Shown here: in pieces, positions 9,808 to 35,742 of the stretch
Layout: each line of letters starts with the position of its first letter
Numbering within the stretch: position 1 is the stretch's first letter
DNA from: a virus
Length of the DNA: 64,000 bases
Strand: one strand, 5' to 3'
Virus record (IMG/VR): IMGVR_UViG_3300028586_000750
Program-made: the position numbers and the translations under genes
The notes under the pieces: model-generated
What the model was told of the DNA's origin: nothing
The model's database searches: none
The model's input: the letters and a program-made list of their open reading frames with translations, nothing else

Positions 9808-10096
9808 TCTTGATCCTTTTGTTTATTAAACAAATGTTATCATGATTATTGCTTATGGTCAAGCTGTATGCTCCGGCTAAGCTTGTTTTTGTTTGTTTTG
9901 ATAAGCGTATAGCTTATACATCGCTTTGATAAGCTATACGCTTATCAAAAACCACAATATGTCACATTTTAGCAACATATAATATGTTACTAGAAAAGCT
10001 TGGACTAATTTACATGCCAAGCTTTTCTTTTATATTCCTGTTGCACAACCGCTTTTGGAGTGCTAGACTAAATTTAATCATTCACCGCTACACCAT

Positions 10097-11133: not shown

Positions 11134-14070
11134 ATGTCAAATCGTAAAGTAGTCTCAACCCGAAAAAGAATTATTGCAGGGACACTAACAACGCTATTAG
11201 CGTGTGGTGGTTTTGTTGGAATGGCCGCAACACAGGCATCAGCAGCAACATGGGCGGACCAAGCAAACAGTTCAGCTAAAGAATTACCAACAGCCGCATC
11301 AGCTTATAGCAACAAAGGAATAAGAGTAGCAGACGGAATTAATCCACCAACAAACTCATGGATTTCAGGAGCAGTTTTCGTAGGAGACGGAACACCTAAA
11401 CCAACATTTACAGGTTCCACATCATTTAAAACGTATGATGACAGTTTTGGCGTATTCATGCCTAATATTGTTGCAACACCAAAAACAGTGTTCGGTATGT
11501 ATTCCGATGATAACCAAATCAAATTCAAACCAGCCGGAGCGTCCAGCTACCAGTTAACAAGAATTGATGACATTTCCGCTGACCTAACCTATATGAACGG
11601 TTCACAAAAAGTTGGTACAGTCACATCAGCAGAAGGCTGGCCTTATGTTCAATACAAAGCAAACACAGCACAACAAGTAAAAGTTACAGCACCAAACGCT
11701 ATAACTAAAATTGATGGTGGTTACACTTTTAAAGACAACAATGGTACAACCTACAGAGTTATTACCAGTGCAACTTTGACTGACGGTAACTTAAACCTCA
11801 AAGCAGGCCAAATGGCTCATGTTTATGCGGTACCAAAAAACGCATCAGCGGATGAAATCAAAACTCTCGATGCAGGCGCTGTAGAACTAACAGGTAGTAA
11901 CACCAGTTACGCTATCACCAATGGTGAAGCTGTAACAGAGTTCACATTAAAAACAGTAGATAATAAACCAACTGTGTTTGCATCTATGCCTCACCAAGAT
12001 AAAATAACTAGTAACGGCACCACTTTAAAAAGTACCTACGAAAACCTTCAAGGAACAATGGACTTACTTAGTGGTAACAAGTTTACATACGCTATTCCAG
12101 CGCTTGCAACTCCACTTGATTTAGACCTTTCAGGTATGAGTGATGAAGAAAAGACAACACTTAAAGCTCAAATTCGTGCTGACATTCCAACAGTAACTAA
12201 ATTTGATGCCGAAGGTTCATATTATGGTGGTAAGTACCTTGAACGTGCTGTTCAGGTTTACCGTTTAGCTAAGCAGCTTGATATGAAAACGGAAAGCGCA
12301 ACATTGAAAACAGCTATCACCGCTGAGCTAGACATGTGGATGGACCCTGACCGTTGCGAAACAGAGTCAACTAAATGCTTTACCTATGATGAACTTCTTA
12401 AAGGTGTTGTTGGGCAAAAAGCAGAATATGGTTCTGATACAGAATTTAATGACCATTACTTCCACTATGGTTACTTCTTATATGCTGCGGGAGCTATGGC
12501 ATTAGATGACCCAACATTAGTTTCTAAATATAAGACTGTTGCTGACATTCTTGCTGCTGATATTGCTAATACACAAGATACTGACACAGCAATTGAACGT
12601 CGCAACTTTGATGATTATGCAGGCCACTCATGGGCTTCTGGTGTTTCACCATTCCAAGATGGAAATAACCAAGAGTCAACTAGTGAAGCAACAAATGCTT
12701 GGATTGGTCTTAACCTTTGGGCTACTGCTTCTGGTAACACCGAGTTAGCTACAGAAGCACAATGGATGTTCTCTAACGAAGCTCGCACAGCAGTTCAATA
12801 TTACCTAAATCCTACAAAAAGAGACGGCTTCACGTCGCCTCATCTATCCATGGTTTGGGGAGGTAAAGCAGACTATGCAACATGGTTCAGCGGCCAAGCA
12901 TCAGCTATTACAGGCATTCAAGTTATTCCTGTGGCACCAGCACATATTGCATATTTGAAGAGCGTAGGAGACGCGCAACTTGATGTACTTAGCGATAGCG
13001 TATTTGGAGCTAACAACGAAAATGTTTCAGGTCAACCATTGGTTGATTGGACTGTTGCGTTAACAGCAATGAATGACCAAGAACGTGCTGAATTACTTTA
13101 TGGTAAATTGAAGGACAGTGACATTGATAATGGTAATACTCGTTCTTACTTGTATGCTCTTATTCATTCCGCTGGCGCAGTTGAGTCTGCGCCAGTTATT
13201 CCAAGTAACCCTTCTGAACCAACTACACCCGTGACACCACCCGTAGTTACTCCACCTGTTACTCCACCAGTAACAACCCCCGAGCCAACTACACCACCAG
13301 TAGATAGTGGTAAAGCATCTGCAACAGGCTCATTAACTGATACTGCTGACGGTGACCACACTGTATCTGAAAATGGAAGTATCACACAAAAACTATCTTA
13401 TACAGGGTTAACACCTAATAATGATTATGTTGTTATTACAGAACTGTTTGATACCAAAACTGGTGCAATTGTTGGCGTAAAAGACAAAGTATTCCGCCCA
13501 GCAACAGCAACAGGTGAAACAAGTTTGGCCTTTAGCTACAGCGATAACTTTAAAGGTAAAACAATTGTGGCACATACTCGTTTGTTAGGGCCTGGTGGCG
13601 CTGTAATTGCTAACTTGAATAAAACAAGTGATACAAACCAGATTGTTACTTTCAGTGGTGGACAAACAACACCACCAGTTGTTACCCCACCTGTAACAAC
13701 CCCCGAGGTACCATCCGGTTCTCCTAAGTTTACTTCTGAGCTAACTGATGCTTCTGATGGTGACCACAATGCTAAAAATGGTGCAGAGTTAAAACAAACA
13801 GTTAACTATACAAACCTTAATGCAGGTCAAGATTACGTTATTGTTGTTGAACTGTTGGATGCTACAACTCAACAACCTGTGGGTGTGGTAAAAGACAAAG
13901 TATTCCGTCCATCAACATCAAATGGAACAACCACTTTGAGCGTTCCAACAAGTAACTCACAGAATGGTAAAACCGTATTCGCCAAAGTACGCTTTCTAGG
14001 GCCTGCTGGGGCAGAGTTCAGTAATGTTACTACTGAACTAAATGCAAAACAATCAGTTAAGTTAGGTTAA
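11134..14070 (+). CDS. Secreted GH81 endo-1,3-beta-glucanase with Pro/Thr linkers and two VaFE/T-Q ester-bond-like Ig domains
   Basis: Signal peptide; NDHYFHYGY and GNNQESTSEA GH81 motifs; two C-terminal repeats TD..DGDH...Y..L....Y....L.D..T......K.F.P. Confidence 0.88.
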   Translation: MSNRKVVSTRKRIIAGTLTTLLACGGFVGMAATQASAATWADQANSSAKELPTAASAYSNKGIRVADGINPPTNSWISGAVFVGDGTPKPTFTGSTSFKTYDDSFGVFMPNIVATPKTVFGMYSDDNQIKFKPAGASSYQLTRIDDISADLTYMNGSQKVGTVTSAEGWPYVQYKANTAQQVKVTAPNAITKIDGGYTFKDNNGTTYRVITSATLTDGNLNLKAGQMAHVYAVPKNASADEIKTLDAGAVELTGSNTSYAITNGEAVTEFTLKTVDNKPTVFASMPHQDKITSNGTTLKSTYENLQGTMDLLSGNKFTYAIPALATPLDLDLSGMSDEEKTTLKAQIRADIPTVTKFDAEGSYYGGKYLERAVQVYRLAKQLDMKTESATLKTAITAELDMWMDPDRCETESTKCFTYDELLKGVVGQKAEYGSDTEFNDHYFHYGYFLYAAGAMALDDPTLVSKYKTVADILAADIANTQDTDTAIERRNFDDYAGHSWASGVSPFQDGNNQESTSEATNAWIGLNLWATASGNTELATEAQWMFSNEARTAVQYYLNPTKRDGFTSPHLSMVWGGKADYATWFSGQASAITGIQVIPVAPAHIAYLKSVGDAQLDVLSDSVFGANNENVSGQPLVDWTVALTAMNDQERAELLYGKLKDSDIDNGNTRSYLYALIHSAGAVESAPVIPSNPSEPTTPVTPPVVTPPVTPPVTTPEPTTPPVDSGKASATGSLTDTADGDHTVSENGSITQKLSYTGLTPNNDYVVITELFDTKTGAIVGVKDKVFRPATATGETSLAFSYSDNFKGKTIVAHTRLLGPGGAVIANLNKTSDTNQIVTFSGGQTTPPVVTPPVTTPEVPSGSPKFTSELTDASDGDHNAKNGAELKQTVNYTNLNAGQDYVIVVELLDATTQQPVGVVKDKVFRPSTSNGTTTLSVPTSNSQNGKTVFAKVRFLGPAGAEFSNVTTELNAKQSVKLG

Positions 14071-14236: not shown

Positions 14237-15979
14237 TTAAATATTACCAATCTTTTTGGTATTCGTTGGAACATTAATAAGCTTTGCAATATCCGCTGGG
14301 ATAGGTGTAGCAACACTTACGTTATTTGTTTCATCAGCAGTCATACTGCTAAGAGGAAGAACTGTTTTAGTTATAGCGTTCTTCCATGTTGGATTAATAT
14401 TTTTGTTTAATGCTTCTGGTGTATCATAGCGAATGAAATCACCTGTTGAGTCAGGTGTTACACCCCATGCAACAACAGTGTTTTGACCAGTCTGAGCACG
14501 AACATTGAATAAGTTGCCTGTTAACGTAATGTTTTTAGGAGCGGCATTCAAAGCGTAGAACTGGAACCCTTTAGTGGCACCAAAAGTGTTGTTAGCAATG
14601 GTGATATCTTTTGTTACCCATGAAACAGTAGGGTCTGGTAACGGTTGACGTGGGTCATGACCAGGAACTTTAGTGTCTGAGGCTAAACGACTATCTTGTG
14701 CTACACGAACAGCGAAGCGAGAGTTATTTTCAAACTCGTTATTGTAAACTTTTACGTCACCAGTGCCCACAATGGTTAAACCATCTGTTTGGTTACTGGA
14801 ACTGTTGTTGGCAACAATAACTTTTTGAGACAATTCAAGAGAAATACCTGTTGAACTGTTGTTATTAGTAATGCTGTTGGTAATAGACGCGTTGTAAACG
14901 GATTCGTCTAACCAAATACCTGCACCCCAGTTGTTACTTGAATAAAGGTTGTCAATTTTAACATCACGTGAACGTGTGATTTTGAAACCGCCAGCCACTG
15001 GTGCTTGTTTGAATTGCTGGAAATTGTTTTGTTCAATACGTGAGTTCGTGAAGGATGAACCGTATGCTGCGTTAGAACCTAAACCAAGCATTCCGCTTCT
15101 TAGAATAGTTACATGGTCAACTTTAGCATTGTTGTTACTCATGCTAAGACCAAGGTATGCGTTGTCTTCTATTTGAAGGTTTTGTGCTGTAGCGTTAATG
15201 TTAACCATACGGACAGCAGCTTGGTCTTCACTTGTTGAAGCGTAACGTCTTACACCAAAACCTTGAAGTGTTGTTCCTGCTGAGTTAACCATGATACCGG
15301 CACTCAAGTTGCTTATACGAACTTCTTTACCTACGGGACTTGTTCCAATAATAACTTTTTTAGCCACAGTATCAACGTAGAAAGTATTACTTTTAACTTC
15401 TGCGGCAGTGGCTACTTGTGTCATCTGCACACCATTAATGAACACTTGGTCACGTTTAGACGCTAAAGGATGGTCTTTATGTACGTAACGTGGGTTATCT
15501 GCGATACCATCAATTACTGATGATGGGAAGAAGGACCAAGGGGTTGACCATGTTGTACCATTTTGTGTCCATGTGGTTACTTTTTGCGAACCATCAAACC
15601 ATACAGTTTCTTTAGGATAAGCCTGAATGGTAAGAGGTTTGCTGTAAGGGACATTAATGCTTTCGTTGTACTCACCTGCACGTACAACAACCGTTTGACC
15701 TGCTTTAGCTTTTGTAACAGCAGCTTGAACTGTTTTTAATGGGCTTGCTAGCGTCCCTGCGGCTGTATCAGAGCCTGTTGGAGCTACAACAAGTGCAGTA
15801 GAAGGGACAGCATAGTTTGTCGTTCCTAGCTTAGCTGAGCCTTGCGTTGATGATGGTCCAGTTACAGGTAGCGTTGCAGCGTTTGCACCGGTTACTGTAA
15901 TTAGCGGAGAAACAAGAAGAGCGATAGTTATAGCACCTACCGCTCGTTTCTTTTTACTAAAAATAGATAGTTGTTTCAT
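14237..15979 (-). CDS. Secreted right-handed parallel beta-helix (pectin-lyase-like fold) protein
   Basis: Likely start MKQLSIFSKKK; signal peptide; VAPTGSD..GT..SP.KT..A motif; Asn-ladder repeats. Confidence 0.8.
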   Translation of the reverse strand: MKQLSIFSKKKRAVGAITIALLVSPLITVTGANAATLPVTGPSSTQGSAKLGTTNYAVPSTALVVAPTGSDTAAGTLASPLKTVQAAVTKAKAGQTVVVRAGEYNESINVPYSKPLTIQAYPKETVWFDGSQKVTTWTQNGTTWSTPWSFFPSSVIDGIADNPRYVHKDHPLASKRDQVFINGVQMTQVATAAEVKSNTFYVDTVAKKVIIGTSPVGKEVRISNLSAGIMVNSAGTTLQGFGVRRYASTSEDQAAVRMVNINATAQNLQIEDNAYLGLSMSNNNAKVDHVTILRSGMLGLGSNAAYGSSFTNSRIEQNNFQQFKQAPVAGGFKITRSRDVKIDNLYSSNNWGAGIWLDESVYNASITNSITNNNSSTGISLELSQKVIVANNSSSNQTDGLTIVGTGDVKVYNNEFENNSRFAVRVAQDSRLASDTKVPGHDPRQPLPDPTVSWVTKDITIANNTFGATKGFQFYALNAAPKNITLTGNLFNVRAQTGQNTVVAWGVTPDSTGDFIRYDTPEALNKNINPTWKNAITKTVLPLSSMTADETNNVSVATPIPADIAKLINVPTNTKKIGNI

Positions 15980-16165
15980 TGTTGAATTACCTTTCCTCAT
16001 GGTATTTTTTTGAATACAAAATGAACCCTTAATATGGGTGCACTCTATCCCCGTTTTAAATATCTGCATTTTGTTTAAGACCGCAACATAATAGGAAAAG
16101 TCTGGTATCAAAATGGTTAACACTTTAATACCAGACTTTTCCTAGAAAACTTTAGATAAGAATAG

Positions 16166-21726: not shown

Positions 21727-23265
21727 TTATTTCACGAATGAAACACCAGTTGTTGTTTTGTCATATTGAGGCCAGGTTGTACCATTTGATGGACCATAGA
21801 AGGAAGATTTTAATGTTCCGTTCTTTGTGTCAATTTCAAGTGTACGTACTGGGTTTGTGGTGTTTGAATGGAATGTTCCTAAGTAAGAAACAATTTTGTT
21901 ACCGTTCACACCAGTGTCTTCGCGGTATCCTGCTTCACCGACGTGACCAGAAACAACAATTTTGATGTTTGCGTACTGCTTAATCAAGTTGTCGTAAACG
22001 TATTGTGCAGAATTTGAACCATAGCTTGCTGATTGGTCAATTGTTGAGCCGCCATTCAAGTAAGAATGAGTTGATACAACAACATTGTAGTCAGGGTGTG
22101 AAGCTACAACTGTTTTAGCCCAGTCAACAACTTCTGTTCTTGGCCATAGTTCAAGATTTAGCATAAGCCATTTTTGGCCTGCTGCGTCAAAGGTTTGGTA
22201 AGCGTTATCAACTTTACCTGCTTCAAAGGTTGTAATACCTGGGTAACGGTTTACGTTGAAGTAAGTGTTGAATGTTGTTGTGTTGCGAACCAAAGTTCTT
22301 GTGTTCTTTGGGTCTGCTGCTCCACCACCGACACCTACTGCTGCTGTGTCATGGTTACCAATTGTTAATGCGTTAGGAATTTTGTTGTCATCTAGCACTC
22401 TCATAGCTTTTGATGCAACTTCGTATTGGTCATGAGTTGGGGTGTCCCAGTTCACAACGTCACCTGTGTGTTCTACGAAACGTAGGTCAAGGTTTTCTTT
22501 GTTGTTAACTAACCATTGTGTTCTGTTAATAAATCTGCTGTCTTTTCCAACTTCCTGTTGTGTGTCAGGGATGACTGCGATTGAGAACTTACCGTCAGCG
22601 TCTTGTGGGCTTAATGGCGCTGGGGTTGGTGTAACTGGTGGTGTAACCACTGGTGGGGTCACAGGAGGCGTTACAGGGGGTGTAACAGGTACTGTAGCTG
22701 CTGGCATTGCCCAGAAGATTGTTCCTTCTGCTGTCCAACCTGCTGCTTTAAGAGCATCTTTATCAGCTTGTGTTGTTGCGTAACGGTGCTTGCTTCCAAG
22801 AATGAAACGGTCTACAGGAATACCGCAATCAATCTTTTTAGGTGAAGCATAGAAGTTGATACCTTGGTCAACGTAATCATATTTTGTTTTGGCACTTTCG
22901 TATTCGTTTGAACCTGACCATTTTGGAATGTAAACAAAGTCACCTTTTTTAAACATGCGGTAAACAGGAACTAGTCCTTCTTTTTCTTTACCTGCTGCTT
23001 TGAACGACACACCTTTATCTACAGTAAAACCATTGTTAACTTTAGCTTTAGCAATCTCATTTGCATTAGATGTAAGCAACGATGCATTTGATGTTGGGTT
23101 AACTGATTGGTAGATATCTGTTGTCATTCCAGCACATACGGTGCTGGACGCGGGTGTGGTTGCTGCGTTTGCTGTTACCGCACCCATTGGTAAGAATGCC
23201 AATGTTAAAGCTACTGCGCCAAACTTTTTCCAATTTTTGGCAGAGTTCTTGTTTTGTTTTTTCAT
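21727..23265 (-). CDS. Secreted calcineurin-like metallophosphoesterase with N-terminal surface-protein domain and Pro/Thr linker
   Basis: Signal peptide; DTQ, HTGDVV, GNHD, STH, SGH motifs. Confidence 0.85.
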   Translation of the reverse strand: MKKQNKNSAKNWKKFGAVALTLAFLPMGAVTANAATTPASSTVCAGMTTDIYQSVNPTSNASLLTSNANEIAKAKVNNGFTVDKGVSFKAAGKEKEGLVPVYRMFKKGDFVYIPKWSGSNEYESAKTKYDYVDQGINFYASPKKIDCGIPVDRFILGSKHRYATTQADKDALKAAGWTAEGTIFWAMPAATVPVTPPVTPPVTPPVVTPPVTPTPAPLSPQDADGKFSIAVIPDTQQEVGKDSRFINRTQWLVNNKENLDLRFVEHTGDVVNWDTPTHDQYEVASKAMRVLDDNKIPNALTIGNHDTAAVGVGGGAADPKNTRTLVRNTTTFNTYFNVNRYPGITTFEAGKVDNAYQTFDAAGQKWLMLNLELWPRTEVVDWAKTVVASHPDYNVVVSTHSYLNGGSTIDQSASYGSNSAQYVYDNLIKQYANIKIVVSGHVGEAGYREDTGVNGNKIVSYLGTFHSNTTNPVRTLEIDTKNGTLKSSFYGPSNGTTWPQYDKTTTGVSFVK

Positions 23266-23902: not shown

Positions 23903-24305
23903 TAGTTGCTCCTTATTTAGGTAGTTTCACTGTATCACAGTAAATACAGGTTAGCAATGTGAAAAGACAAAGCGGGGTGCCTCATATTTAGAGGCACCCC
24001 GCTAGTAAGTTATTCGATTTCTACTTTAGTAGCTGGTTCTACGTGAAGGTCACCATGCTCTGTTTTAATTCGCACGTGACCGGGAATTGCTTTGGATGGC
24101 TCTGCATCTTCAATGGCACGGGAAAGATTTCCCTGTGAGCCAATGATGAAGTCTCCACCTTTTACCTCGTCGTATCTAACAATCATAAGTTTTCTCTTCT
24201 CTCAGGTTAAATAAAAAACGCTACAGCCCTATACCGTAATGTGCATATAGGACTGTAGCGGTGTATAGCTTCTAATTCCTTCACAAGGAAACTATACGCA
24301 AAATT

Positions 24306-24401
24306 CTGCACCCTGTTGCCACAGGATAAGGAATGCAGTGAACAGCCTCAACTACGGCTCTTGCTGTTCTCGTCAAATCAGGGTGGCAACCCTGGCCGTA
24401 G
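24306..24401 (-). ncRNA. Candidate pseudoknot plus kissing-loop RNA
   Basis: Two crossing 7-bp helices and two hairpins with complementary loops UUGCCA/UGGCAA. Confidence 0.65.
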
Positions 24402-24407
24402 ATTTCG

Positions 24408-24489
24408 TAGCTCAGGTGGGACTCGAACCCACAATCCTTGCGGCACTTGATTTTAAGTCAAGCGTGTATGCCAATTCCACCACTAAGCC
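24408..24489 (-). tRNA. tRNA-Leu(TAA)
   Basis: Class II cloverleaf; loop CT-TAA-AA. Confidence 0.92.
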
Positions 24490-24624
24490 ATAGTGTGTGT
24501 TCCGCCTTACCTTTGTAAGACCTTACGGAAAGAAACACATTCCCGTTACCCAACATCATCACTTAATGTGTCCCTATGCTTTTATTTACATAAAAGAGGC
24601 AGATGAGCGGTCAGATAACCCTTG

Positions 24625-24699: not shown

Positions 24700-24706
24700 A
24701 TACCAT

Positions 24707-24772
24707 ACAGACAAACAGGAATTTAACCTGTGACCTTGCTCACCACACGCTCTAACACTGAGCTATTATCTG
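24707..24772 (-). ncRNA. tRNA-like RNA with an 11-nt stub in place of the anticodon arm
   Basis: Acceptor CAGATAA/TTGTCTG, D arm GCTC/GAGC and T stem ACAGG/CCTGT all pair; no 17-nt anticodon arm. Confidence 0.7.
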
Positions 24773-24874
24773 TACTATGCAACGGCGTTCAAATCCGTTC
24801 CTCTTCGCTTGCTTGCGAATTGTGCTATCTATACACTATACAAGTTTGTTATAATTCACTATGTAATTATTTTG

Positions 24875-24948: not shown

Positions 24949-25130
24949 TCGTTATGTTTCTATTCTAGCACACTTTATGTATTCATGTCAACTTATTTTG
25001 TCAACTTTATGTGCTTAAAGTTTTAGTGTGAGACTACCTCTTATTTCTCATTCTCACCCCAGCGCGTTATTAACTCACCTATCAAGTCTACCATCCTAAC
25101 CCCGAAAGGTTAGGACCGCTGGCCCTCGCG

Positions 25131-25199
25131 TTCCTTCACATAGAATTGAACTATGGACATTCCAAAAAGTTGGACGCTCTACCACTGAGCTATGAAGGA
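25131..25199 (-). ncRNA. tRNA-like RNA with 4-nt anticodon loop
   Basis: Perfect acceptor TCCTTCA/TGAAGGA, D and T arms; arm TCCAA-CTTT-TTGGA. Confidence 0.75.
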
Positions 25200-25377: not shown

Positions 25378-25460
25378 TTTCCCTGGCAGGACTCGAACCT
25401 ACACTACACCGGCTATAAATAACTATGCCTAGCTGCCTTGACCAATTTGGCTACAGGGAA
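25378..25460 (-). ncRNA. tRNA-like RNA with irregular enlarged anticodon region
   Basis: Perfect acceptor TTCCCTG/CAGGGAA; T arm GTAGG-TTCGAGT-CCTGC; no canonical 7-nt loop. Confidence 0.65.
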
Positions 25461-26402: not shown

Positions 26403-26488
26403 ATGCTTAGTCTTTCTCTCGATGAAACCGTTTAATTAACACATGCTCAATTTATGAACATCACATAAGACACTATTTTGTGTCTTTG

Positions 26489-26560
26489 CTCCCACCACAG
26501 GACTTGAACCTGTAAAAGAGACTACGCGGCCTCTTGTTTTGCCAGCTAAACTAGACGGGA
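26489..26560 (-). ncRNA. tRNA-like RNA, copy 2 (8-nt anticodon loop)
   Basis: Near-identical to copy 1 with compensatory 1:72 change (C-G to T-A) and a 5-nt shorter loop. Confidence 0.7.
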
Positions 26561-30491: not shown

Positions 30492-30962
30492 TTATTTATT
30501 TTTCCACGGCTTACCATTAGTTTGTTGGCTATGGCAATTTGGGCATAAAAATCTTAGATTGGGCGCACGATTATCATAGTTGCGCCCATTTATATGGTCA
30601 ATTTCAAGTACAATAGGTTTACCATTATATTCTGAACCAATGCCGCAACCCTCACAGATATGCAATCTTCCAATATCCAGTAGTGCTCGGCGCAAATGAA
30701 CAGTTTTAGTTTTCCATTTATTAGCCTCTTCGAGGACCAAAATATCTTCAGGTGCTAACCGTTTTGCAGCTTGTTTGCCCTTCATGTGACCTTGACCTGT
30801 AAAGTGCGAGATATCAATACCAGCATTTATAATACGTCGTTTGATATGACTTTGGCTACCACCAGCGAGTGGTATCCCAAGTTCTCTTAAAACAGCCGCA
30901 ATACTAAAACTATCTGCAACAGCTTTAGCAAGAGTTTCTGTAGTGTACTTGTATTTGGTCAC
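30492..30962 (-). CDS. HNH (homing) endonuclease
   Basis: CEGCG...LEIDHINGRNYDNRAPNLRFLCPNCH. Confidence 0.9.
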   Translation of the reverse strand: MTKYKYTTETLAKAVADSFSIAAVLRELGIPLAGGSQSHIKRRIINAGIDISHFTGQGHMKGKQAAKRLAPEDILVLEEANKWKTKTVHLRRALLDIGRLHICEGCGIGSEYNGKPIVLEIDHINGRNYDNRAPNLRFLCPNCHSQQTNGKPWKNK

Positions 30963-30986
30963 AGTCTAATTTTACCATAACATTAG

Positions 30987-31057
30987 GAACAGTAGTGGGA
31001 CTCGAACCCACATGCACCGCTAAAGTGCGGCGTAGTTTACCATTAGCTTATACTGTC
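30987..31057 (-). ncRNA. tRNA-like RNA with 6-nt anticodon loop
   Basis: Acceptor GACAGTA/TACTGTT; T arm GTGGG-TTCGAGT-CCCAC; stem GCCGC/GCGGT with loop ACTTTA. Confidence 0.65.
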
Positions 31058-31918: not shown

Positions 31919-32006
31919 TGGCACTTTAGGTGGGATTTGAACCCACATGTCCTTTCGGACAAGGCACCTTTGAAAGCGCCTCTCGTCTGCATTCCGCCAC
32001 TAAAGT
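31919..32006 (-). tRNA. Atypical Leu-body tRNA with 10-nt anticodon loop (CTTTCAAAGG), G73 and encoded CCA
   Basis: Body closely resembles Leu(CAA) 21494..21576; perfect acceptor ACTTTAG/CTAAAGT. Confidence 0.7.
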
Positions 32007-33521: not shown

Positions 33522-34751
33522 ATGTTTTTAAACTTCCAACACAAACTGAAAGAAACACGAGAACAAGAATCTGGTTTTACATTAATTGAACTTATGATTG
33601 TTGTAGTCATTATTGGCATCCTAGCTGCTGTAGCAATTCCTGTTTTCGCTACACAACAAAAAGAAGGCATTAAAGGGACAGTTAAATCTGACGTTCGTAA
33701 CACAACCGGTAACGTTGTACAATTTTTAACCAAAACACCAACAGCATCAGATGTTTCCGGAACAAAGATTGTGTCTTCCGCTGACAATGTTATCGCTGTA
33801 AGTGGGGACTGGCAAGACTACACAGTGCGTGGTAAAAACGCCGCTGTTAATGACTGGTGTTGGGTTTACTCTTCCAAAACAGGTAAAGCAGTTGAAGGCA
33901 CCGGCGTCAACTGTGACTTCACAATGGCTCCTGTGACCACAACACCAGGAACAACTACACCTGGTACTGGTGGAACAATTATTCCTGGTACTGGCGCTGC
34001 TAGCCTTATTGCTACTGCTGCGTTAGAGCAACCTATCTTTGGTCGTGATTATGAAACAAAAGTTGTTGCTAGTGACCCTAACGTTACTTTCACCGCAGAT
34101 GGGTTACCTAATGGACTTGGAATGAACACAGGTGGCACCATTTCAGGTATCCCTACCACTAAAGGTGACTTCACAGTAACTGTAACTGCTGCTCTTGATA
34201 AAGCTAAAGAAACTAAAGATTTCAACTTGACTGTTGATACTATTGCTAACTTCACAGAAAGCTTTGATGATGCAGATTACGCTAAACGAGGTATTGGTGC
34301 ATCAGGACTTGTGTATGGAGGTAAAAGTTATAGTGGACCTTATGCGACACCTTCACCTGTTGGAACACCAATAGGTGGCGCTTCCAAAATATCAACATTC
34401 GGTGTAACTGGCGGAAACCTTGTATTAGCAGGCGATAAAGCAGTTAATTCAAACTCAACCATTAATGCTGTTGTTAACACTCTTAGCATTAATGGTTTAG
34501 AACCTAACGCAACATATGATTTCTCTATTTACATTGACAGTAATATGACAGGACGCTATTCAGGTAGTACAAACATTACCGAATTTAAGATTGCCGGTGC
34601 AGCAAAAACTTATACAGGTCCAGGTAATTACACTTGGTCAGGTAAAGCTGATACTAACGGTAAAGTAACAGTGGATATTAGAATGGCCTGTCAAAATTCT
34701 GTAACACCAATGGCTTTCAAAATGGATAACTTCTCTGGTTTAAAGAAGTAA
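33522..34751 (+). CDS. Type IV pilin-like protein with putative Ig domain and C-terminal beta domain
   Basis: G-FTLIELMIVVVIIGILAAVAIP prepilin motif; GLP.GL....GTISG.PT..G.FTVTVTA Ig motif. Confidence 0.88.
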   Translation: MFLNFQHKLKETREQESGFTLIELMIVVVIIGILAAVAIPVFATQQKEGIKGTVKSDVRNTTGNVVQFLTKTPTASDVSGTKIVSSADNVIAVSGDWQDYTVRGKNAAVNDWCWVYSSKTGKAVEGTGVNCDFTMAPVTTTPGTTTPGTGGTIIPGTGAASLIATAALEQPIFGRDYETKVVASDPNVTFTADGLPNGLGMNTGGTISGIPTTKGDFTVTVTAALDKAKETKDFNLTVDTIANFTESFDDADYAKRGIGASGLVYGGKSYSGPYATPSPVGTPIGGASKISTFGVTGGNLVLAGDKAVNSNSTINAVVNTLSINGLEPNATYDFSIYIDSNMTGRYSGSTNITEFKIAGAAKTYTGPGNYTWSGKADTNGKVTVDIRMACQNSVTPMAFKMDNFSGLKK

Positions 34752-35649: not shown

Positions 35650-35742
35650 TGCGACAAGCAGGAATCGAACCTGCGCGACCCCGTTTCATCCAGTAACTAG
35701 CTGGGTTACTCGGGGGTTGTGCTACCACTACACCATTGTCTT
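35650..35742 (-). ncRNA. tRNA-like RNA with 30-nt hairpin insert in the anticodon loop
   Basis: D arm GTGT-AGTGGTA-GCAC; stem ACCCC/GGGGT; insert AGTAAC/GTTACT; T arm GCAGG-TTCGATT-CCTGC. Confidence 0.65.

Follow-up and report, generated by a model that had tools for sequence, protein, structure and literature searches.

We interpret the 96-nt segment that follows tRNA-Leu(UAA) in the window (the whole 64-kb stretch of DNA that was analysed) as a genuine non-coding RNA that is structured, under selection and of a family not described before, carried by two megaphage lineages. With regard to its role, we lean, at a little under even confidence, toward a stable small RNA derived from the trailer of a tRNA operon, in which a pseudoknotted 5′ domain protects and shapes the molecule. 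At this stage the element is a well-defined candidate, and the comparative support for it is thin. In giant phages, tRNAs occur in islands together with orphan small RNAs, the purpose of which is largely obscure. The element outdoes its own tRNA in conservation and packs three long-range contacts into ~100 nt, a size suited to biochemical and structural work.

The segments of the element and of its surroundings are listed in Table 1. Two perfect 7-bp helices, S1 and S2, cross each other, and the loops of hairpins 1 and 3 are complementary; the pairings of S1, of S2 and of the loops are all exact in the sequence. Hairpin 3 consists of an outer stem of 6 bp (including U69:R91), a 7-nt bulge UCCUUAU, an inner stem of 4 bp and the loop UGGCAA. 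All segments named in the first-pass annotation (S1, S2 and both hairpins) were recovered on the minus strand with their pairings, although that list had left out the 9-nt linker AUUUGACGA. The kissing complementarity, described there as 6 bp, is likewise present but measures 8 nt (GUUGCCAC/GUGGCAAC) when the closing pairs are included. The strand of the RNA is fixed as minus by the G.U pairing of hairpins 3 and 4, which exists on this strand only. There are no open reading frames of at least 40 aa on the minus strand over the element; two plus-strand frames cover it and run antisense across the tRNA.

Table 1. Coordinates of the element, its segments and the neighbouring features in the window
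Feature	Coordinates	Strand	Remarks
Promoter-like site	24962..24991	minus	TTGACA-18-TAGAAT with TG; 11/12 matches; directly upstream of tRNA-Met
tRNA-Leu(UAA)	24408..24489	minus	last of the Met-Gly-Leu array
Spacer	24402..24407	minus	CGAAAU (CAAAAU in L004); 6 nt, from tRNA discriminator to S1
Structured RNA element	24306-24401	minus	96 nt, 3′ of tRNA-Leu(UAA)
S1, 5′ strand	24395..24401	minus	CUACGGC; partner 24352-24358
Hairpin 1	24379..24394	minus	CAGGG[UUGCCA]CCCUG; loop complementary to hairpin 3 loop; no variation among copies
Linker	24370..24378	minus	AUUUGACGA; 9 nt, from hairpin 1 to GAACAGC
S2, 5′ strand	24363..24369	minus	GAACAGC; partner 24340-24346, crossing S1; invariant
S1, 3′ strand	24352..24358	minus	GCCGUAG; preceded by AAGA (AAAU in L004)
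S2, 3′ strand	24340..24346	minus	GCUGUUC; preceded by UUGAG
Hairpin 3	24306..24338	minus	CUGCAU-UCCUUAU-CCUG[UGGCAA]CAGG-GUGCAG; separated from S2 3′ strand by one A
Hairpin 4	24263..24297	minus	conserved top GUGAAGGAAUU; GNRA-type loop GUGA
Intrinsic terminator	24213..24260	minus	16-bp perfect stem, 10-nt loop, U6
58-aa ORF	24010..24186	minus	after the terminator; own ribosome-binding site

The element is known from two lineages, the window's own (L001-L003 and L020-L022, nearly identical copies) and a 617-kb contig, L004, whose homologue of the 158-aa protein encoded downstream of the element is 59% identical. Neither the strand nor the location relative to the tRNA differs between the two: in L004 the element likewise begins 6 nt after tRNA-Leu(UAA). 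Between the window and L004, 89 of the 96 positions of the element are identical (92.7%), compared to 71/83 (85.5%) for tRNA-Leu, 25/48 (52%) for the linker and hairpin 4 that follow the element, and 70-74% for the neighbouring coding sequence. The element is under strong purifying selection. It forms a sharp-edged local maximum of conservation, which speaks for selection and against a recent exchange.

The seven differences from L004 are distributed as follows. A3G and U48C together convert one A-U pair of S1 to G-C. G31A and A32U fall in the linker, where the terminal GA of AUUUGACGA becomes AU, and G42A and A43U fall in the AAGA segment. G91A converts U.G to U-A at U69 in hairpin 3, a change that is found independently in L020 as well. 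All 35 proposed pairs remain canonical despite these differences (P = 0.002-0.014 under random substitution), with 33 of them invariant, one changed on both sides and one changed on one side. A formal covariation analysis of the 35 pairs in the two lineages was not significant (184/500 shuffles). S1 covaries, by one compensatory event, and the sequences lend weak support to the outer stem of hairpin 3. The comparison neither supports nor refutes the pairings of S2, of hairpin 1 and of the kissing loops, since none of these varies. The homologue covariation that had been proposed at the outset as a check therefore came out in favour of S1, through its single A-U to G-C replacement, and in neither direction for S2 and the kissing loops; of the structure claimed at that stage, the pseudoknot is plausible, with one compensatory pair behind it, and the kissing loop has none.

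The annotation had also held that such an arrangement is unlikely by chance. Taken one at a time, the features do not bear this out in first-order Markov simulations of 64-kb sequences: two perfect 7-bp helices that cross within 100 nt were found at 28 loci in the window and at ~16 loci per simulated sequence, and nearby hairpin pairs with loops complementary over at least 6 nt were found in about half of the simulated sequences. When the features are combined, crossing helices together with kissing loops within 120 nt were found in 4 of 100 simulations and at two loci in the real window, which is suggestive, in a test that was framed post hoc. It is the conservation in a second lineage, with all 35 pairs retained, that raises the element above chance. 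The second locus of the window that passes the combined test may be a palindromic region near 9900-9950, which is present in both single-feature lists.

The nested fold of the 107-nt core is mildly better than that of shuffled sequences (z = -1.96); when the complete trailer is folded, hairpin 4 and terminator included, z = -4.6. The energy is -17.7 kcal/mol for the hairpins alone, -25.9 kcal/mol with S1 and -26.7 kcal/mol with S2, so that each of the two helices contributes ~8-10 kcal/mol and, as nested alternatives, they are near-isoenergetic. In these models S1 and S2 form either at the same time, as a pseudoknot, or in alternation. In L004, the centroid fold contains a third arm, AUUUG/CAAAU (5 bp), inside S1. 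The corresponding arm of the window, AUUUG/CAAGA (24359-24363), is weaker, with 4 bp, and overlaps S2 by one base; it is strengthened by G42A and A43U in L004. Accordingly modelled, the third arm can form a three-way junction with S1 and hairpin 1, of which the latter two are solid and the third arm is weak. Alternatively, the two GA-to-AU changes could mean that a tandem G.A pair joining positions 31-32 to 42-43 has given way to A-U/U-A. Conservation is even across helices and loops, and this could reflect overlapping alternative folds. Two other proposals were rejected: a pairing between CACCCUG of hairpin 1 and CAGGGUG of hairpin 3 is broken by G91A in L004 and L020, and reading the CUACG repeat near the end of the tRNA as an att site does not hold, since L004 has not kept this repeat.

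The structured RNA runs past 24306 into hairpin 4 and then the terminator. The lower stem of hairpin 4 has a wholly different sequence in L004 with pairing retained, whereas the loop and the top block AAGGAAUU are kept; the L004 counterpart of hairpin 4 is itself the terminator. In both lineages, the bulge of hairpin 3 contains UUCCUU and the top of hairpin 4 its complement AAGGAA (-4.6 kcal/mol), and this pairing (24326-24332 with hairpin 4) is a possible fourth long-range contact. Right after its terminator L004 has a T-arm-like sequence (GCGUAGGUUCAAAUCCUAC, L004:1915-1945) at which no tRNA was called, and a long perfect terminator-like hairpin lies at L004 ~2065-2125.

The promoter-like site before tRNA-Met, in a region that can be aligned with L004, is the inferred start of the transcription unit; no promoter-like sites were found between tRNA-Leu and the element. 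The simplest unit suggested by this arrangement would comprise the promoter, tRNA-Met, tRNA-Gly, tRNA-Leu, the element, hairpin 4 and the terminator. The discriminator of tRNA-Leu(UAA) is A24408 and CCA is not encoded (A-CGA; A-CAA in L004), so this tRNA needs endonucleolytic 3′ processing and CCA addition. Several further observations concern the tRNA island. The ~170 nt between tRNA-Met and tRNA-Gly (24706-24873, minus strand), taken together with tRNA-Met, show 84% aligned identity to L004:1260-1518; the identity of 24706-24873 far exceeds that of the coding neighbours, and the segment is probably a further conserved small RNA of the island. The leader upstream of tRNA-Leu (24521-24574, minus strand) is 76% identical to L004:1576-1629, that is, part of the spacer is conserved too. 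Three tRNA-like genes reported by ARAGORN, at 26488-26560, 30986-31057 and 31919-32006 on the minus strand, have anticodon loops of irregular form (cg, cttt and tcaa), and Rfam tRNA matches that this program missed are located at 25131-25199, 25378-25460 and 35650-35742. An HNH endonuclease gene (30492-30962, minus strand) also lies within the island.

Under the trailer-derived small RNA model, the element would be the core of a 3′ trailer RNA of ~195 nt (~24407 to 24213, minus strand) belonging to the Met-Gly-Leu operon of a phage-like genome of ~0.79 Mb, whose contig measures 791,407 nt. Transcription would start from the promoter before tRNA-Met and end at the terminator (24260-24213). The transcript would be cut after tRNA-Leu by host or phage tRNA 3′ processing (of the RNase Z/BN or RNase E type), a cut that is needed because CCA is not encoded, and this would free a small RNA with its 5′ end 6 nt from S1. 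The junction with hairpin 1 would be closed by S1 and connected to the 3′ part by S2, and loop-loop pairing would possibly lock hairpin 3 to hairpin 1. Such a fold would shield the new 5′ end of what would be a stable RNA, and would offer a fixed three-dimensional surface acting in trans, by binding either a protein or a second copy of the RNA itself. If the element is a trans-acting scaffold of this kind, it would extend to megaphages the theme of 3′ETS and of T4 rnaC/rnaD.

To define the distribution of the element, we examined the contigs of ten 90%-identity homologue clusters of the 158-aa protein, together with two variants of the 58-aa ORF. Among these 12 homologue contig sets, the element was found in the two lineages only. 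In L016/L017 (158-aa protein 65% identical), tRNA-Leu is followed by a plain terminator, and in L008/L009 (61% identical) by a 125-aa gene, with no element in either case; it is also absent from L010, L011, L012, L013 and L015. The lineages that are free of the element include ones as close as, or closer than, L004. Since these related phages keep tRNA-Leu in its absence, the tRNA does not need the element, and the link to tRNA 3′ processing that had been suggested earlier is not a required one (relatives at 61-65%). Searches of IMG/VR viral contigs with exact blocks, a spaced pattern and protein-anchored scans yielded no further copy and chance matches at most; the JGI metagenome contigs gave one chance match in a GC-rich coding region and no copy. 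No copy was found in GTDB genomes, and INPHARED phages gave no match in either near or distant mode. A paralogue in the 64-kb window was sought with covariance model R1 with filters off and by repeat and mismatch searches, and none was found; tandem repeats of the element are likewise lacking in the window, and a ToxI-like type III antitoxin array was rejected.

A search of 24150-24560 against Rfam 15 with E-values up to 10 returned tRNA only, as did the search at the gathering threshold, in agreement with the initial impression that the element belongs to no recognised class. The twister, pistol, hatchet, hammerhead and pseudoknot riboswitch models of Rfam 15 gave no match, and neither did the HDV-like family models. 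With respect to a tRNA-like character of the element, the tRNA matches of Rfam and of ARAGORN both end at 24407/24408, and there is no T arm. Theta and minimal HDV-like ribozymes resemble the element in their size of under 100 nt, their two crossing helices and their location directly 3′ of a phage tRNA (PMC10879173). However, the gap between the S2 5′ strand and the S1 3′ strand consists of AAGA, without P3-L3, and that between the S1 3′ strand and the S2 3′ strand consists of UUGAG, without P4/J4-2, so the P3/L3 core that had been noted as missing is indeed absent; there is also no P1.1, and S1 starts with C rather than G1 and 6 nt past the discriminator A24408. Theta ribozymes cleave within +/-5 nt of the tRNA 3′ end, 77% of them within +/-1 nt (PMC10879173).

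The closest positional analogue is T4 rnaD, which starts 1 nt after tRNA-Arg on the same strand. Like the element, rnaC (species 1) and rnaD (species 2) of T4 are small non-coding RNAs that adjoin a tRNA in a phage tRNA cluster; unlike the element, rnaC has a tRNA-type T arm, and the T4 folds contain no crossing helices of the S1/S2 type. Model R1 found nothing above noise in T4 69000-75000. To our knowledge, the function of rnaC and rnaD has not been established despite decades of study. A functional precedent in Escherichia coli is 3′ETS-leuZ, from the glyW-cysT-leuZ operon, which is likewise flanked by the final tRNA of an operon, a tRNA-Leu, and by an intrinsic terminator, the position that the element occupies and that characterises 3′ETS-type RNAs. 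RNase E releases it from the leuZ precursor, after which it acts in trans, pairing with the sRNA RyhB, with Hfq (PMC6191717). A difference is that 3′ETS-leuZ acts by simple base-pairing to RyhB, whereas the element is a conserved 96-nt multi-helix fold with an extra hairpin. ROOL and GOLLD, orphan RNAs near phage tRNA genes, assemble as homo-oligomers (PMC12286853); they are several hundred nt long and have Rfam families of their own, whereas the element and its trailer measure ~100-195 nt and do not match them. That the complementary loops of the element might serve oligomerisation, as in ROOL and GOLLD, is pure conjecture by analogy.

The readings that compete with the trailer-derived small RNA differ in what they make of the fold. 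It is unlikely, in our estimate, that the element represents a new catalytic or resistant RNA class, i.e., a ribozyme at the tRNA-Leu end or the first xrRNA-like exonuclease stop from a virus of bacteria. For both, the active fold would consist of the S1/S2 pseudoknot with the loop-loop lock, and the element would be a new RNA class linked to phage tRNA maturation. The resistant variant, taken separately, is rather unlikely. On this reading, tRNA 3′ processing would leave a monophosphate end as the entry point for a 5′-to-3′ exonuclease (e.g., RNase J), and a three-way junction latched by a pseudoknot would halt the enzyme and so protect hairpin 4 and the sequence downstream. Flavivirus xrRNAs have the layout P1/P2/P3 with PK2 and P4, and they also block bacterial RNase J1 (PMC8374639). 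The element, at a comparable size (~70-100 nt), offers a possible junction of S1, hairpin 1 and AUUUG/CAARN, in which S2 would join the third-arm loop to the sequence 3′ of the closing helix S1 and a hairpin comes next, and G42A and A43U of L004 strengthen the third arm. However, the comparison concerns topology alone, in a virus of bacteria, and the match was noticed post hoc; the third arm has 4-5 weak pairs and clashes with one pair of S2, a PK1-like pairing with the 5′ flank (AAAU/AUUU, 4 nt) is unstable alone at +2.2 kcal/mol, and no Rfam xrRNA model matched. The relation to xrRNAs would accordingly be one of resemblance, not membership. Self-cleavage at or near the 3′ end of tRNA-Leu, by a new ribozyme class with theta/HDV-like action and another fold, strikes us as quite unlikely. 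A distance of at most 6 nt from the 3′ end of a phage tRNA without CCA is the context of theta ribozymes (PMC10879173), and the compact double-pseudoknot topology, the near-total conservation including the junctions and the optional presence among relatives, which matches the distribution of theta ribozymes, fit such an activity; against it stand the failure to match any Rfam ribozyme up to an E-value of 10, the missing P3/L3/P1.1/P4, the first base of S1 (C, not G) and the 6 nt, instead of 0-1 nt, that separate S1 from the tRNA end.

The possibility that there is no RNA function, and that a recent local DNA exchange or a DNA-level site has been conserved while the pairings are coincidental, is very unlikely. 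It would account for the occurrence in two lineages only, for the frequency with which each structural feature alone arises by chance and for the closer relatives without the element, which are compatible with mobile DNA. Nevertheless, identity falls on both sides of the element (85.5% in the tRNA, 52% in hairpin 4), so the breakpoints would have to coincide exactly with its edges, and the seven differences avoid or compensate all 35 pairs, while the stem change in hairpin 4 is compensated as well. Highly improbable, finally, is a riboswitch-like leader in which the sensing of a ligand or protein would decide whether transcription passes the terminator and enters the 58-aa, 158-aa and 512-aa genes. 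The element, the terminator and the co-oriented ORFs stand in series, and the element and the 58-aa ORF are jointly present in both lineages and jointly absent elsewhere, which speaks for such a leader; however, the terminator has a 16-bp perfect stem, no conserved antiterminator pairing with the element was found, and in L004 the terminator is another hairpin, with ~310 nt and a second long terminator-like hairpin before the ORF.

The homologue of the 58-aa ORF that follows the element in L004 (L004:2262-2435) is 46% identical, and outside the two lineages unrelated small genes take the place of this ORF. It matched no Pfam or PHROG family, and a word-based protein search returned only the ORF itself. 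Its predicted structure is all-beta at low confidence (pLDDT 62), with weak matches to SH3/Tudor/Hfq-like folds (E at least 0.1). The 158-aa and 512-aa genes are also downstream and co-oriented with the element; the 512-aa protein (21727-23265, minus strand) contains DUF5648 and calcineurin-like metallophosphoesterase domains. Elsewhere in the window, large proteins are encoded at 11134-14070 (plus strand), 14237-16123 (minus strand) and 33522-34751 (plus strand), and these include one protein that combines a GH81 glycosyl hydrolase domain with a T-Q ester domain, one that has a beta-helix and one that has a type IV pilin-like N-terminal methylation motif.
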